Assembly (NCBI GenBank): GCA_037380845.1
Contig: JARRRI010000022.1
Span: forward strand, 73,289-137,288
DNA length: 64,000 bases
Origin: Candidatus Sulfobium sp.
GTDB lineage: Bacteria; Nitrospirota; Thermodesulfovibrionia; Thermodesulfovibrionales; UBA6898
Direction of reading: 5' to 3'
Shown here: positions 30,017 through 58,360 of the stretch, in pieces
Position numbering within the stretch: the first letter of the stretch is position 1
Layout of the letters: every line of letters begins with the position of its first letter
Translations under genes and position numbers: made by a program
The notes under the pieces: model-generated
Database searches by the model: none
Told to the model about the DNA's origin: nothing
What the model saw: the letters and a program-made list of their open reading frames with translations, nothing else

Positions 30017-30776
30017 ATGAGAAAAGTCTTGTCGGGAGTTTTGATGCTCGGATTTATTCTGGCGTTGGGCGTGTACGGTGCGGATGCGCAGTCGCAGCCG
30101 CCGGGCGGAACGGGCGGAGGTGTTTCGGCCAGGTGCGCGGATATAATGGGCCCCGGAATGATGGGAGGTCCCATGAGGGGTGGCTACGGAATGAGGGGCA
30201 AGGGCATGATGGCACCGGGTATGGCGAGCGGTAACATGGGAGGCCGTTGCGGCTGCGGTATGGCGAGCGGTAACATGGAAGGCCGTTGCGGCTGCGGTAT
30301 GGTGCGGTATGATGGGCCGTCATTTTGGAATGATGGGCGGGAAGGGTAGTATGGGCGGTGTGCATCACCGCCTCTGGCACTATATCATGAGACTCGATCT
30401 TGACCAGAACCAGCGGGCCGAGATCTGGAAAACAAAGACCGACCTGATGAAGAACATGATCCGGAAGAAGGCCGACCTGCGCATCGCCATGCTGGAACTG
30501 GGTAATCTGGTCCATGCCGACAAAACCGACATGAAGAAGGTCGAGGCTAAGGTAAAACAGATAGAGAATCTGAGATCGTCCATGCTCATTTCCGGCATAG
30601 AAGCAATGGAGGCCGTTAAGTCGAAGCTGACCGCCGACCAGAGGAAGAAACTGGGCAACATGATGGAGAGCCCTGGGCGATGCATGATGATGGGTGATGA
30701 CATGATGAGCGGCGGCATGACCGGCGGAGACATGATGGGAGACGGTATGATGGAAGAAGCTCCGGCTGAAGATTAA
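30017..30776 (+). pseudogene. Spy/CpxP-like periplasmic Met-rich protein, frameshifted at ~30302
   Basis: Signal peptide in frame 30017; LDLDQNQR...KLTADQRKK helical domain in frame 30309; break lies inside a 39-bp tandem repeat. Confidence 0.75.
30218..30302 (+). repeat. 39-bp tandem repeat (2 full + 1 partial) encoding GMASGNM(G/E)GRCGC
   Basis: Units start at 30218, 30257 and 30296. Confidence 0.9.
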
Positions 30777-30787
30777 CTGACACGCGA

Positions 30788-30831
30788 CCGGCGGGAGGGG
30801 CAAAGCGTGACCCGCTTTCCCCTCCTGCCGG
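30788..30831 (+). other. GC-rich intergenic hairpin (no U-tract)
   Basis: ccggcgggagggg caaagcg tgacc cgcttt cccctcctgccgg. Confidence 0.5.
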
Positions 30832-30907
30832 CAGGCTCCGGGGCAAACTGAGAAGTTAGAGTTACTTGCCCGGTTCCTGAGCAATTCCTTAAAGAAGGAG
30901 GCTTATC

Positions 30908-31117
30908 ATGAAAAAGAACGTCGGAGGCATCGACAAAGCGATAAGGTTCATTATCGGGATCGTCCTGGGTCTTATCGGCTTTTTCGTGCAGATGAGCACC
31001 GGCCTTAGAATAGCTTTCTTCGCTGTCGGGGCCATAGCCCTCATCACCGCCTTTACCGGTTTTTGACCGCTCTGGGCGGTGCTCGGGATCAGCACCCACA
31101 AGGAACATTCAGGCTGA
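30908..31117 (+). CDS. DUF2892/YgaP-like small membrane protein with in-frame TGA (candidate selenocysteine, codon 53)
   Basis: Not in the ORF track. RBS AAGGAGG; MKKNVGGIDKAIRFIIG...ITAFTGF-TGA-PLWAVLGISTHKEHSG; family pattern NVG..D...R...G(F/W)CPLY..LGIST. Confidence 0.85.
31078..31096 (+). promoter_or_regulatory. Putative bacterial SECIS element
   Basis: GGTGCT-CGGGATC-AGCACC hairpin starting 11 nt after TGA 31064-31066; G-rich apex. Confidence 0.7.
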
Positions 31118-31126
31118 GAATACATA

Positions 31127-31735
31127 TCAAAGGGAGAGCCCGAATCTCGATAGCGCCCTGGCTGTCGAGGCGTGGTCAACATGGTGAATGCCGTTTATGC
31201 CCAAAGTGCGGGCGACTTCGACATAGAGTCCCCTGTCATCGATGTACACAACGTTTTCAGGCGGAACCTGGGCCGCATCGAGGGCGATGCGGTAGATATC
31301 TTCATCGGGCTTCCGGAAGTGGACAAAGCAGGACACTATGAAGAAGTCAATGAATTCTGCCAACCCGTGGTCCCTGACTCGCCGGTCTGTCAGCTCCCGC
31401 CCTTCATTGCTGACCGCGGCCACCTTCAATCCGTATTTCTTTTTCAGTTCCCGGAACAGACCGATCGTCTCAGGGTAAGGCGTTGTCCGGAACATGAACT
31501 CCTTTAGATCTTCCCGCGGGAAAGACCTTTCCTCATAAAAGATAACGCGGTCGAGGTAAGTATCGAGAGTAAGCTTGCCTTCCTCGTACGTATCGAAGGT
31601 CAGATGGTGCCTCTCGTTCAACTCGTCGATGTCAAAGCCGAAATGGTCGGCGGCTCTCTTTCGTTTCTCATGGCCCCAGCCGTTTTCGAGCATGACTCCG
31701 CCGATATCCAGAAACAGTGCCCTGACAGGTGGCAT
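31127..31735 (-). CDS. HAD-family phosphatase
   Basis: FLDIGGV, VSNE, RKPD..IY, YIDD. Confidence 0.9.
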   Translation of the reverse strand: MPPVRALFLDIGGVMLENGWGHEKRKRAADHFGFDIDELNERHHLTFDTYEEGKLTLDTYLDRVIFYEERSFPREDLKEFMFRTTPYPETIGLFRELKKKYGLKVAAVSNEGRELTDRRVRDHGLAEFIDFFIVSCFVHFRKPDEDIYRIALDAAQVPPENVVYIDDRGLYVEVARTLGINGIHHVDHASTARALSRFGLSL

Positions 31736-54736: not shown

Positions 54737-56140
54737 TTGGGGCCTGCCGGAAAAGAGAGCCTGCTTTCGAGCCTGCCGTCCGTAGACGAACTGCTCAAGA
54801 GTCCCGAGGGCAACGAGTGGCTGTCGCGCTACCGGCGAAGGATCGTAGTTCAGTCGGTCAGGGACGTGATTGCATCCAGGAGGAAGGAGATTCTGGAGGG
54901 GCTGAGAACCGAACCCGCCGAAGACCTCGGTCCGGACATAGAAAAGCGCATCGCCGAACTGTCGTCATTCAGCCTGACGCCGGTCATAAACGCCACCGGA
55001 ATAGTAGTACATACGAACCTGGGCAGGTCCGTCCTCCCCGACAGGGTCCTGGACCACGTGCGGGAAATAGGCGCAGGCTATTCCACGCTGGAGTACGACC
55101 TCAAGGCCGGAAAGAGGGGACAGAGGCACACCCATACCAGGAGACTCCTGCAGGATATTACGGGGGCGGAGGACGCTCTCATCGTCAACAACAATGCCGC
55201 CGCCGTCCTTATCTGTCTTAATACCCTGGCAGCAGGCAAAGAGGTGATCGTCTCCCGGGGCGAACTGGTCGAGATAGGCGGCTCTTTCAGGATCCCCGAT
55301 GTAATGAAGGCAAGCGGCGCGGTACTTCGCGAAGTCGGCACAACCAACAAGACCCATCTCCATGACTACATGGACGCAATAAACGAAAACAGTGCCCTGA
55401 TCCTGAAGGTCCACCAGTCCAATTACAAGATAACCGGTTTTACGGAGGACGTACCGGTCGCCGACCTCGCGTCTCTCGGCAGGAAGGCAGGGGTACCGGT
55501 CATGTACGACCTCGGAAGCGGCTGCCTGCTGGACCTCAGGAAGTACGGCATCCACGACGAACCGTCGGTCCAGGAGACGGTAAAGGCAGGGGTCGATATC
55601 GTTACCTTCAGCGGAGACAAGCTTCTGGGGGGCCCGCAGGGAGGCATTGTAGCCGGCGGCAAAGAATACGTGGAGAGGATCAGGAAGAACCCGCTGGCCC
55701 GCGCCCTGAGGATCGACAAGCTAACCATCGCCGCCTTTGAGGCCACGCTCATGGAGTACATGGACCCAGAAAGCGCAGTTCAAGAAATCCCCGTTCTCAG
55801 AATGCTCTTCCAGCCTCCCGCAGAGATAAAGGCCCGGGCAAGAAAGATCGCCTCGGCCCTGCGGGCTTCCGTCAGAGACGAGAGGTTCGAAGTTATAGAG
55901 GACTCTTCCAGGGCAGGCGGCGGCGCCCTCCCCGAGACAGAATTCCCTTCGTTCGCCGTCTCCGTAAAGCCGTGTGGTATATCGGTCAACGAAATGGAAT
56001 CACGTCTCAGAAGAGGTTCGCCTCCCGTAATCGCAAGGATCAAGGGCGATTCTCTTCTCCTGGATGCAAGGACAATCGGGCAGGATGATATAAGAGGTAT
56101 CGTCCGGGCCGTATCGACGGCACTTTCACCGGCTCAATGA
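54737..56140 (+). CDS. selA: L-seryl-tRNA(Sec) selenium transferase
   Basis: INATG..HTNLGR, SRGELVEIGGSFRIP, EVGTTN, FSGDKLLGGPQ. Confidence 0.96.
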   Translation: MGPAGKESLLSSLPSVDELLKSPEGNEWLSRYRRRIVVQSVRDVIASRRKEILEGLRTEPAEDLGPDIEKRIAELSSFSLTPVINATGIVVHTNLGRSVLPDRVLDHVREIGAGYSTLEYDLKAGKRGQRHTHTRRLLQDITGAEDALIVNNNAAAVLICLNTLAAGKEVIVSRGELVEIGGSFRIPDVMKASGAVLREVGTTNKTHLHDYMDAINENSALILKVHQSNYKITGFTEDVPVADLASLGRKAGVPVMYDLGSGCLLDLRKYGIHDEPSVQETVKAGVDIVTFSGDKLLGGPQGGIVAGGKEYVERIRKNPLARALRIDKLTIAAFEATLMEYMDPESAVQEIPVLRMLFQPPAEIKARARKIASALRASVRDERFEVIEDSSRAGGGALPETEFPSFAVSVKPCGISVNEMESRLRRGSPPVIARIKGDSLLLDARTIGQDDIRGIVRAVSTALSPAQ

Positions 56141-56455
56141 TTAACCCGCGGCCAGCTTCTTCATCAGGACTGCCGAGAGCAGAAACTTCGGAAACTCTTC
56201 CTCCTTGACCTTCCTGTAGAATTCACATGTCTCGCAGTTCCTGTATTTCTGGGCAAAGGTGCCCTGTACCTGTCCGCCGCAGAGTGTGCCGGCCAGCACC
56301 CAGCAACTCCTCCCTGCATGACTTCCGTCATGGACCCCGTCGAGTCTTTCATCCGTAGTCGCAGGGCAGACCCCAAGGTCCTCGGCATGCGCTCCACCTT
56401 TTTCCCTTCCGCACTTCTTGAACTCCCAGCAGTTGAGTTTTCTGTCTTGTGTCAT
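56141..56455 (-). CDS. Small Cys-rich 'two-CW' domain protein, between selA and selB
   Basis: NCWEFKKCGRE...CPA...HAGRSCWVLAGTLC...CETCEF; RBS GGAGG. Confidence 0.85.
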   Translation of the reverse strand: MTQDRKLNCWEFKKCGREKGGAHAEDLGVCPATTDERLDGVHDGSHAGRSCWVLAGTLCGGQVQGTFAQKYRNCETCEFYRKVKEEEFPKFLLSAVLMKKLAAG

Positions 56456-56572
56456 CCCGTCTTACCTCCGGAAGAAATAAAGGTTCACCTTGGTCGGCGT
56501 CAGGAAGAATCAGCAGTCCGCGGACGCAGCGGCTGTCCTCACCGGTCATGTACTTTACACAAAAAATGAGCA

Positions 56573-58360
56573 AAGGAGGAAAAGGAGCGGGGCATCACCA
56601 TCGACATAGGCTTCGCCGACATCGCATACCCGGAAAGCGGCCTTACCGTGGGCATAGTCGATGTCCCGGGCCATGAAAAGCTGATAAAAAACATGCTCGC
56701 CGGGGCGGGGGGGATCGACATGGTCCTGCTGGTCATAGCGGCGGACGAAGGGGTCATGCCCCAGAGCCGCGAACACCTTTCGATATGCAATATCCTTAAG
56801 ATAAAGTCGGGGCTGATCGCGATCACCAAATCCGATCTGGTCGAAAGGGAGTGGCTCGAACTTGTCCGCGAAGACGTCAGGGGCTTTGTGAAAGGCACCT
56901 TCCTCGAAGACGCACCGATCATTCCGGTATCGTCAAAGACCGGCGAAAACGTGGAACTGCTCAAGAAAGAAATAGGCGAGCTGGCCCTTACCATAGCCCC
57001 CAAATCTTCAGACGGCTTGTTCAGACTGCCTATCGACAGGGTCTTCACCCTCAAGGGCTTCGGCACGGTCGTTACCGGTACGGCGATATCGGGCAAAGTC
57101 TCCGTGGACGAGCCGCTTGAAATACTGCCTGTCGGCATAAAAACAAAGGTCAGGGGTCTCCACAGCCATGGCAAGGCGATCAGAACGGCGTTTGCTGGTC
57201 AGAGGGTGGCCATGAACCTCCAGGCCGTCGAAAAAGAAGACCTGAAGCGGGGGGATGTTGCGGTGACCTCGGTGAGCTTCGACCAGGCAAAGAACCTCGA
57301 TGTCTTTATCGAACTCCTGAAGGACGCCCCGACCCTGAAGACCAGGAGCCTCGTCCATTTCTATACCGGCACGTCCGAGACCGTTGCCAGGGCGGTACTT
57401 TACGGCAGGGACGAGCTGAAGGCCGGTGAATCCTGCTACGGTCAGTTCAGGCTGAAAGATCCCGTGATAGCCCTGTCGGGCGACCGCTATATAATCAGGA
57501 GATTTTCCCCGCTGGAGACACTCGGCGGGGGGGAGGTGCTCGATCCCTCTCCGCCGAAGAGAAGAAGAAAGGAGGTCGTCTCCGACCTTGAAATCCTTCA
57601 CGGCGGGACACTCCGGCAGAAGGTCTCTCTTAAAATAGAGCATTCCCAGTCAGCCGGGATTTCGGTCCGGAGGCTTATGGGCTGGATCAATGCCGGCAAG
57701 GGCGCAGTCTCGGAGGCGCTGGAGAGCCTGACAAAATCGGGGGAGATCGTACGGTTTGAGGATGTCGTCCTTCACAGGAAGTCCCTCGTTTCCCTGCAGA
57801 AGGGGATAAAGGGACTTCTGAAGGCATTCCACGAAAAAAACCCTCTGAAGCACGGCATGCCCAAGGAAGAGGTCAGGAACCAGCTGAGGATAGATCCCAG
57901 GATGTTCAACTTCATATTATCCGGGCTGAACGGAATCGTCGTCGAAAAGAACCTGCTCAGACTGAAGGACTTCAGGATAGCACTTACCAGCAGCGAAGAA
58001 ACCTTTAAGGCAAGGATCCTTGAGACCCTGGATAAGAGCGGCTTTCAGCCTCCCTCCAGGGAGGAACTCGCAGCCGGTCTGAAGACGGAGGAGAAACGCA
58101 TTTCGGATATCCTCAATATCCTGGAAAAAGAAGGAAGCACGGTCAGGCTGAATGAGACGTTCTCTGTCTCCAGAAGGGTCTATGACGAAATGACGGCCCT
58201 TCTCAAAGATTTTTTTGCAGCCAACAAGGAGATGACGGTTGCCGACTTCAGGGACCTCCTCCATACGACAAGGAAATATGCCCTGCCTTTTCTTGAATAC
58301 CTGGACTCCCACAAGATAACCATCCGGACCGGGGACGTCAGAAAGTTGCTGGCCAAATAG
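56573..58360 (+). CDS. selB: Selenocysteine-specific elongation factor SelB; N-terminus (G1 P-loop) missing as assembled
   Basis: KEEKERGITIDIGFA, DVPGHE, TKSD, PIDRVF..GFGTVVTGT, TTRKYALPFLEYLD; in-frame TGA at 56567-56569 just upstream. Confidence 0.9.
   Translation, partial: KEEKERGITIDIGFADIAYPESGLTVGIVDVPGHEKLIKNMLAGAGGIDMVLLVIAADEGVMPQSREHLSICNILKIKSGLIAITKSDLVEREWLELVREDVRGFVKGTFLEDAPIIPVSSKTGENVELLKKEIGELALTIAPKSSDGLFRLPIDRVFTLKGFGTVVTGTAISGKVSVDEPLEILPVGIKTKVRGLHSHGKAIRTAFAGQRVAMNLQAVEKEDLKRGDVAVTSVSFDQAKNLDVFIELLKDAPTLKTRSLVHFYTGTSETVARAVLYGRDELKAGESCYGQFRLKDPVIALSGDRYIIRRFSPLETLGGGEVLDPSPPKRRRKEVVSDLEILHGGTLRQKVSLKIEHSQSAGISVRRLMGWINAGKGAVSEALESLTKSGEIVRFEDVVLHRKSLVSLQKGIKGLLKAFHEKNPLKHGMPKEEVRNQLRIDPRMFNFILSGLNGIVVEKNLLRLKDFRIALTSSEETFKARILETLDKSGFQPPSREELAAGLKTEEKRISDILNILEKEGSTVRLNETFSVSRRVYDEMTALLKDFFAANKEMTVADFRDLLHTTRKYALPFLEYLDSHKITIRTGDVRKLLAK

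Follow-up and report, generated by a model that had tools for sequence, protein, structure and literature searches.

The window analysed here is a 64,000-nucleotide stretch of DNA from Candidatus Sulfobium sp. It contains a short gene in which 52 sense codons, counted from an ATG at 30908, are followed by an in-frame TGA at 31064-31066 (plus strand). The question raised by this locus is whether that TGA is a stop codon or a codon for selenocysteine (Sec). The frame past the TGA runs on as PLWAVLGISTHKEHSG up to a second TGA at 31115-31117, and a Shine-Dalgarno-like AAGGAGG (30895-30901) lies 6 nt before the ATG. The initial annotation, which was made from the sequence alone, had reported the ribosome binding site, the start, the 52 codons, the TGA and the continued frame; all are present in the sequence as described. 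It had also proposed a 69-residue protein with Sec as residue 53 (GF-U-PLW). This proposal is supported by a domain match that runs through the TGA, the alternation of TGA and TGY in one column among relatives, conservation of the downstream peptide, constraint on a hairpin behind the UGA and co-occurrence with the Sec machinery. On this evidence 30908-31117 is very probably a genuine selenoprotein gene, with UGA 31064-31066 at the invariant Cys column of the YgaP-like_TM/DUF2892 family. In the table 11 list of open reading frames, only the 52-codon version of the gene at 30908 appears. The features of the locus are:

30309-30776, plus strand: upstream neighbour, coding for a Metal_resist protein (PF13801) whose C-terminal tail is rich in Met and Gly; as a neighbour it is kept only in loci L001 and L002
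30895-30901, plus strand: Shine-Dalgarno-like AAGGAGG, read directly
30908-31117, plus strand: predicted full coding sequence of the 69-residue selenoprotein, final TGA included, with Sec as residue 53; PF11127 match through the TGA
31064-31066, plus strand: in-frame TGA at the conserved Cys column, very probably read as Sec; TGA in 45 parsed relatives, TGC or TGT in 20 in-phylum and 80 out-of-phylum Cys forms
31067-31077, plus strand: 11-nt spacer from UGA to hairpin, made up of the Pro-Leu-Trp codons and two bases of an Ala codon; the same 11-nt spacing is found in fdhA2 of the same genome
31078-31096, plus strand: putative SECIS hairpin with 5' arm (31078-31083), loop (31084-31090) and 3' arm (31091-31096), overlapping the (A)VLGIST codons; 6/6 pairs in 43/45 Sec forms, fixed synonymous sites, RNAalifold consensus
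31115-31117, plus strand: terminal TGA, predicted to act as the stop codon; relatives have their own stop (TAA, TAG or TGA) within a few codons

A GC-rich inverted repeat is found at 30777-30850, after the stop codon of the Metal_resist gene; given its position, the Sec gene may have its own promoter.

Reading frame and the cysteine column

The read-through product belongs to the YgaP-like_TM family, formerly DUF2892 (PF11127; E 4.5e-21, 75.2 bits against a cut-off of 25.3). The match spans protein residues 1-66 and profile positions 1-65 of 66, running straight across the TGA, which bears out the assignment to DUF2892 that had been made by eye. NCBIfam models gave no match to the read-through protein beyond an unrelated model at E 0.21, and single-sequence and profile searches of PDB sequences with this protein gave no match.

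Relatives were surveyed in 390 genomes of the class; at a homolog cut-off of E <= 1e-5, 122 genomes were positive. An in-frame TGA is found at the Cys column at 46 places in 42 of the 390 genomes. Forty-five of these places were parsed, while the copy in G176 (L063) is cut by a contig end and is counted in the 46 only. The same genomes also yielded 20 parsed Cys forms, whose Cys lines up with the U in 45/45 parsed Sec rows. The same column holds Cys in 80 further forms from many phyla; the search pattern for this set had Cys in place of U and could return Cys forms only, so it serves as a control and not as a Sec survey. Both the placing of the UGA on the conserved DUF2892 Cys and the expected TGA/TGY alternation at this column (45 TGA rows versus 20 Cys rows) are thus confirmed. 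The motif reads G-F-U-P-L-W in Sec forms versus G-W-C-P-P-Y or G-W-C-P-L-Y in Cys forms, and identity among the Sec forms goes down to about 46%. One Sec form was found outside the class (L164 in G539). Its hairpin is identical; a Cys form from the same family, L166, makes three of the six pairs.

The peptide after the UGA, PLW.VLGIST, is conserved in the TGA homologs: across positions +1 to +10, P, L, W, V, L, G, I, S and T are kept in 38-42 of 42 distinct Sec forms. Over the same 42 forms the codons spread synonymously, with four codons used for Pro at +1, six for Leu at +2 and three for Ile at +8. Kept residues combined with synonymous variation are the signature of translation, not of an untranslated tail. 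This comparison shows that the 16 codons following the UGA are selected for the protein sequence they encode.

The ortholog in G001 (L013, G001:C8, about 1560-1640) is without the first transmembrane helix. Here AAGGAGG and an ATG lead directly into the loop, helix 2, the UGA and an intact hairpin; the product would have about 41 residues if made.

The initial annotation had also expected gene callers to truncate the gene, and public entries agree with this. A search against a 5.8-billion-protein collection retrieved 97 homologs, 44 of which cover at most 74% of the query, which means that they end at the UGA; 34 are exactly 52 residues long. The homologs are named 'hypothetical' or 'DUF2892 domain-containing protein', and 0/97 are called selenoprotein. 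Entries cut at the UGA lose the conserved motif; one profile could mend annotation pipelines.

The locus is present in marsh metagenome runs. Record 16 of X9, a contig from an independent 2022 run, spans 30917-31200 and shows 0 differences. This DNA may derive from X1 and X2, in which the TGA likewise has no other letter; TGC or TGT at 31064 was not seen in contigs from these three data sets. Summed contig depth over 31054-31089 rises from about 16 to 113 in X1 and from about 31 to 245 in X2. Several short contigs in these two runs match only about 31043-31105, with 1-5 differences, and then diverge. This gives a hint, with the depths summed over organisms, which suggests that co-occurring relatives share the UGA-SECIS stretch.

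The hairpin behind the UGA

GGTGCT (31078-31083) and AGCACC (31091-31096) form an inverted repeat around CGGGATC (31084-31090), starting 11 nt after the TGA. The hairpin GGUGCU-CGGGAUC-AGCACC is therefore present just as reported from the sequence, at exactly the stated distance from the UGA. Folding of the single sequence does not single it out, and for this reason was not used as support: the 66-nt fold prefers another structure, and 128 of 200 shuffled sequences fold as well (z 0.40). The ensemble probability of the hairpin in 60 nt is about 45%. A scan of 30800-31300 against Rfam returned no SECIS family, only sub-threshold snoRNA and sRNA noise.

The bSECIS model, as given in the available text of PMC13188914, requires a loop of 3-9 nt with G within its first two positions, a stem of 4-16 bp, a distance of 16-37 nt between UGA and loop, and a free energy of -7.5 kcal/mol or lower. 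The present element fits the geometry set out there, with a loop of 7 nt, a stem of 6 bp, G at loop position 2 and 17 nt from UGA to loop (PMC13188914). Against the model threshold of -7.5 kcal/mol, the energy is -7.3 kcal/mol for the 19-mer hairpin and -10.2 kcal/mol for a 45-nt fold constrained to keep the hairpin.

The stem overlaps the VLGIST codons, so conservation of the hairpin could be a by-product of conservation of the protein. Codon choice bears on this point. Codons +4 to +7, +9 and +10 are AAG, GTG, CTC, GGG, AGC and ACC in 95-100% of the 42 distinct Sec forms; in their flanking codons, the commonest codon reaches only 32-83%. In the 20 in-phylum Cys forms, the commonest codon at the same hairpin positions accounts for 31-70%, and Ser is mostly encoded by TCN. 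The 80 control Cys forms encode the same peptide, CPL[WY][KAS]VLGI, and use GTG in 46%, CTC in 26% and GGG in 20%. The GGG of the loop, fixed at a synonymous site, is found in 40 of 41 Sec forms.

Pairing follows the same pattern. All six pairs are present in 43 of 45 Sec forms; L011 makes four of six, and L064 makes one in this register. When folded into the fixed hairpin, 44 Sec forms average -6.7 kcal/mol versus +4.5 kcal/mol for the 20 Cys forms. Some tendency to pair comes with the peptide VLGI(S/N)T alone: each of the 80 Cys forms has 1-6 pairs, mostly four, and 4 of 80 reach 6/6. From 42 distinct sequences that reached from 6 nt upstream of the UGA to 45 nt downstream, RNAalifold recovered this hairpin unaided as the only consensus structure (-8.11 kcal/mol). 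The alignment contains one compensatory change, from G-C to A-U in L044; the hairpin breaks only in L011, and the covariation term is 0. Classical covariation is thin because the stem hardly varies, and the case rests on synonymous-site constraint. Among relatives, the hairpin is held at synonymous sites only in the TGA forms. Chance is excluded for the hairpin only through this comparison with relatives and not from the single sequence; as the comparison shows, selection also acts at the RNA level on the 19-nt stretch that begins 11 nt behind the UGA.

Similar elements are found in two fdhA-like genes of the same genome, each of which has one in-frame TGA. In fdhA2 a 7-bp hairpin with the loop GGGCU starts 11 nt after the UGA; in fdhA1 a 6-bp hairpin with the loop GGUCU starts 12 nt after it. 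The upper stem-loop of the E. coli fdhF SECIS also starts 11 nt after the UGA. These three, like the element described here, are hairpins within the coding sequence, 11-12 nt after the UGA, with 6-7 bp and a small loop starting with GG. The fdhA SECIS loops differ in length, having 5 nt, whereas the loop here has 7 nt (CGGGATC) and the element is drawn wholly from the codons of the VLGIST peptide. A SECIS made of conserved-peptide codons would be a clean case of dual constraint on protein and RNA, and an example of how a Cys codon can turn into a Sec codon.

Sec machinery and rival readings

Two genes for Sec synthesis and insertion, selA and selB, had been placed in the window by the initial annotation. 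This is correct for selA; selB is present but N-terminally incomplete, as the 5' part that encodes the P-loop is missing:

54737-56140, plus strand: selA (selenocysteine synthase); PF03841, E 1.1e-154
56570-58360, plus strand: selB, frame open only from 56570 because of an in-frame TGA at 56567-56569, without about 31 N-terminal codons including the P-loop; from comparison with selB of relatives

Besides the two fdhA-like genes, the genome also encodes tRNA-Sec and a selD with its own in-frame TGA. This selD (G000:C20:72213-73058) was matched by its model in two pieces, 1-173 and 200-308, with no gap between them in the DNA, so that about 26 positions of the model seem to have no counterpart; selD of G164, G168 and G368 match in one piece. 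Between selA and selB, on the opposite strand, lies a Cys-rich open reading frame of 106 codons (56141-56461, minus strand) with the motifs C-W-E-F-K-K-C-G ... C-E-T-C-E-F-Y.

Co-occurrence of TGA forms and SelA is uninformative within the class, since SelA is found in 354 of the 390 genomes; it is present in 41 of the 42 class genomes with a TGA form. The other, G368 (88% complete), is without SelA and has tRNA-Sec and a TGA-containing selD. Among 401 genomes sampled from the phylum, a TGA form is present in 12 of 195 with SelA versus 0 of 206 without it; the Fisher p of 1.5e-4 is overstated, as relatives are not independent. In families without any SelA, 76 of 192 genomes carry a homolog, none with TGA. 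In the genomes sampled, the TGA form is confined to those with Sec machinery, as had been anticipated. G164 was considered as a Cys form in a genome without this machinery and was rejected, since it has SelB, tRNA-Sec and a TGA-containing selD.

The selB frame of this genome starts within the switch-I region, behind the in-frame TGA. Loci L167-L171 were examined: selB has a full N-terminus with P-loop in G002, G003 and G205, and in G000 and G001 the model match begins only at position 29, with about 31 codons missing. A search for the missing SelB N-terminus in the 104 contigs matched only EF-Tu, IF2 and other GTPases. Over the remaining 595 selB codons, dN/dS between G000 and G001 is 0.079 at a dS of 1.04; this is like the values for intact pairs (0.062-0.087), so the gene is not decaying. 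Both fdhA ortholog pairs of G000 and G001 keep an aligned UGA, with dN/dS of 0.048 and 0.099 downstream of it versus 0.044 and 0.102 upstream; equal selection on the two sides indicates that Sec decoding is maintained in this lineage. Sec decoding appears to have been kept despite the P-loop-less selB frame. The state of selB could be explained by a SelB that has no P-loop, by two recent deletions or by an assembly error.

The incomplete selB bears on two other explanations of the locus. The UGA could be read through without Sec, by near-cognate or suppressor decoding as Cys, Trp or another amino acid, perhaps because of a defective SelB; the missing P-loop region in G000 and G001 would fit this. 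Such decoding is very unlikely. The gene itself ends with TGA, which therefore cannot be a sense codon in general; selection maintains the hairpin, whose spacing and GG-loop are those of the fdhA SECIS elements of the same genome; in the fdhA orthologs of G000 and G001 the UGA is retained, with the same dN/dS behind it (0.048 and 0.099) as before it; and tRNA-Sec, selA and selD are present. The other explanation, with which the incomplete selB would also agree, is that the UGA is a true stop, that the 52-residue product is real and that the hairpin is a regulatory or terminator-like RNA element. Hairpins behind stop codons are common, and 44 of the 97 database homologs are called in this way (34 at exactly 52 residues). 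We regard this as extremely unlikely, because the 16 codons after the UGA are kept as amino acids while free synonymous sites vary, and because these codons complete the PF11127 model to 65/66. Cys forms encode the same peptide uninterrupted, and a 52-residue product would be without the only invariant motif of the family; TGA forms are, moreover, found in 0 of 206 SelA-negative genomes.

Since the gene is short and comes from a draft genome of 104 contigs, its one in-frame stop could also be a nonsense mutation in a pseudogene, or an assembly or sequencing error. The probability of this is negligible: the same TGA is found at 46 places in 42 genomes with identity down to about 46%, the independent 2022 run is identical, and there are no frameshifts and no further stops.

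Under the favoured reading as a selenoprotein gene, SelB carrying Sec-tRNA(Sec) would bind the hairpin at 31078-31096 (6-bp stem, loop CGGGATC with its conserved GGG) once the ribosome reaches the UGA. Sec would be inserted as residue 53 and translation would go on to the TGA at 31115, which would act as a stop and has no such hairpin at the right distance. The product would have 69 residues and two transmembrane helices, with both ends cytoplasmic as in E. coli YgaP; the selenol would sit where helix 2 meets the cytoplasm, and a short amphipathic helix would follow directly.

Family, evolution and possible function

We could not find PF11127 catalogued as a family that holds selenoproteins in the lists searched. 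It is absent from Table 1 of a 2026 review, which covers 119 selenoprotein families or subfamilies (PMC13188914). YgaP, DUF2892 and PF11127 are absent from the main texts of BSepDB (PMC13326102), deep-Sep (PMC12013277) and Haft's 2022 preprint, and also from the supplements of PMC13326102 and PMC12013277 as far as their text is searchable. No literature linking DUF2892 or YgaP to selenoproteins or selenocysteine was found; subscription journals, BSepDB entries and live NCBI annotation lay outside this search. The gene would add one family to the bacterial selenoproteome, and a very small protein to the very few integral-membrane selenoproteins. The YeeE/YedE family, a putative mercuric transport protein and the SO_0444 family transporter, as they appear in the available text of PMC13188914, are likewise predicted membrane proteins with a single Sec in place of Cys. 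In contrast to the 69-residue two-helix protein described here, they are multi-pass transporters with unrelated folds and Pfam families (PMC13188914).

Small Cys-containing DUF2892/YgaP-like_TM proteins (PF11127) are equal in length to the Sec forms, share the two-helix architecture and the motif G-[FW]-x-P-[LP]-[WY]..LGIST, and adjoin the Sec forms in the tree. They differ in having TGC or TGT and not UGA, in having no fixed hairpin codons and in occurring in genomes both with and without Sec machinery. A maximum-likelihood tree was built from 86 proteins and 67 columns, with the Sec/Cys column masked and with L064 and 55 of the 80 distant Cys forms left out; many of its forks are not resolved. 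One clade holds 41 Sec and 4 Cys forms (support 99/94, branch length 0.77), and the Sec/Cys label needs four changes in all on the tree. The simplest reading, which depends on the root, is one gain of Sec and three returns to Cys. Of the six pairs, the nested Cys forms make four (L041), five (L049), three (L166) and six (L061); from these counts, the hairpin would have loosened in two of the three return lineages and stayed intact in one (L061).

L064 (G357:C40:24878-25681, minus strand) is a divergent copy, G-W-U-P-L-Y-R-L-A-G-I-S-T, with TGA at the Cys column. Its hairpin lies in another register, with 7 bp, one bulge, a start 10 nt after the UGA and the loop AGGUAUCA; a single copy was seen. 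L064 may be a second, independent Sec form. It is conceivable, though doubtful, that DUF2892 is a membrane-surface thiol/selenol relay in which the VLGIST codons act as a ready-made proto-SECIS; switching between Cys and Sec would be easy because these codons already give 4-6 of the six pairs at the right distance. If true, DUF2892 would be a natural system for the study of SECIS birth, and the existence of Sec forms would identify the Cys as the catalytic centre of a membrane sulfur or redox relay.

The predicted structure has helices at residues 5-26, 31-50 and 54-59 with a modest mean pLDDT of 64.5, and suggests two transmembrane helices. With K2, K3, K10 and R13 at the N-terminus, the positive-inside rule predicts that both ends are cytoplasmic and that Sec53 lies where helix 2 reaches the cytoplasm. 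In E. coli YgaP a cytosolic rhodanese domain is combined with a homodimeric two-helix transmembrane domain; the only cysteines of YgaP are C64 and, at the end of TMH2 (L142-G160), C159, according to the available text of PMC4730233. It is like the present protein in its two-helix C-terminal domain, which gives the Pfam family its name, with C159 at the end of TMH2, and is a homodimer with a cytoplasmic N-terminal side (PMC4730233). YgaP differs in having an N-terminal rhodanese domain of about 100 residues and Cys, while the 69-residue protein consists of PF11127 only and would have Sec.

To our knowledge, Sec almost always replaces a chemically active Cys; this marks the invariant Cys of DUF2892 as a key residue. 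The suggestion of the initial annotation that this Cys may be redox- or sulfur/selenium-active is a reasonable one. The Sec forms point to one invariant Cys of a widespread domain, presumably including C159 of E. coli YgaP. Neighbouring genes were scanned at 30 Sec loci (243 ORFs), taken from 34 Sec-form loci up to L051 with L004, L005, L013 and L026 skipped. The genes counted were those for SOD, peroxiredoxin, rubrerythrin/ferritin, MsrAB, DJ-1, cytochrome P460, DsrC-like protein, DsrE, rhodanese and TauE. At 17 of the 30 loci at least one such redox or sulfur gene lies within about 1.4 kb, a count made without a background control. The neighbours include Fe/Mn-SOD with a DsrC-like protein at five loci, cytochrome P460 at six, DJ-1/PfpI at three, ferritin or rubrerythrin at four, DsrE at two and TehB-like methyltransferases at two. 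Peroxiredoxin, an MsrA-MsrB fusion, Cu/Zn-SOD with cytochrome c peroxidase, and TauE are found once each. In this window the neighbours are Metal_resist, a HAD hydrolase and a P-type ATPase, a poor fit to the redox theme.

Because the counts are without a background control and the neighbours here are different, a redox or sulfur function is proposed only weakly. With roughly even chances, the Sec or Cys might act as a reactive nucleophile on the surface of the membrane in a response to oxidative or sulfur stress, either by reducing oxidants or by taking up sulfane sulfur and handing it on. A role in metal or metalloid binding is a second possibility, and an unlikely one.

At four loci an open reading frame of 83-88 residues lies directly upstream of the Sec gene; the gene order is SOD, DsrC-like, this frame, the Sec gene and DJ-1/PfpI. 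The copies are:

L007:1204-1452, plus strand: 83-88-residue open reading frame
L009:1244-1498, plus strand: 83-88-residue open reading frame
L011:1118-1381, plus strand: 83-88-residue open reading frame
L014:1265-1516, minus strand: 83-88-residue open reading frame

Its product may be a partner protein of the Sec protein. The copies have no Pfam match, are 69-82% identical and share the motif D-D-C-M-N-D-x-K-C.
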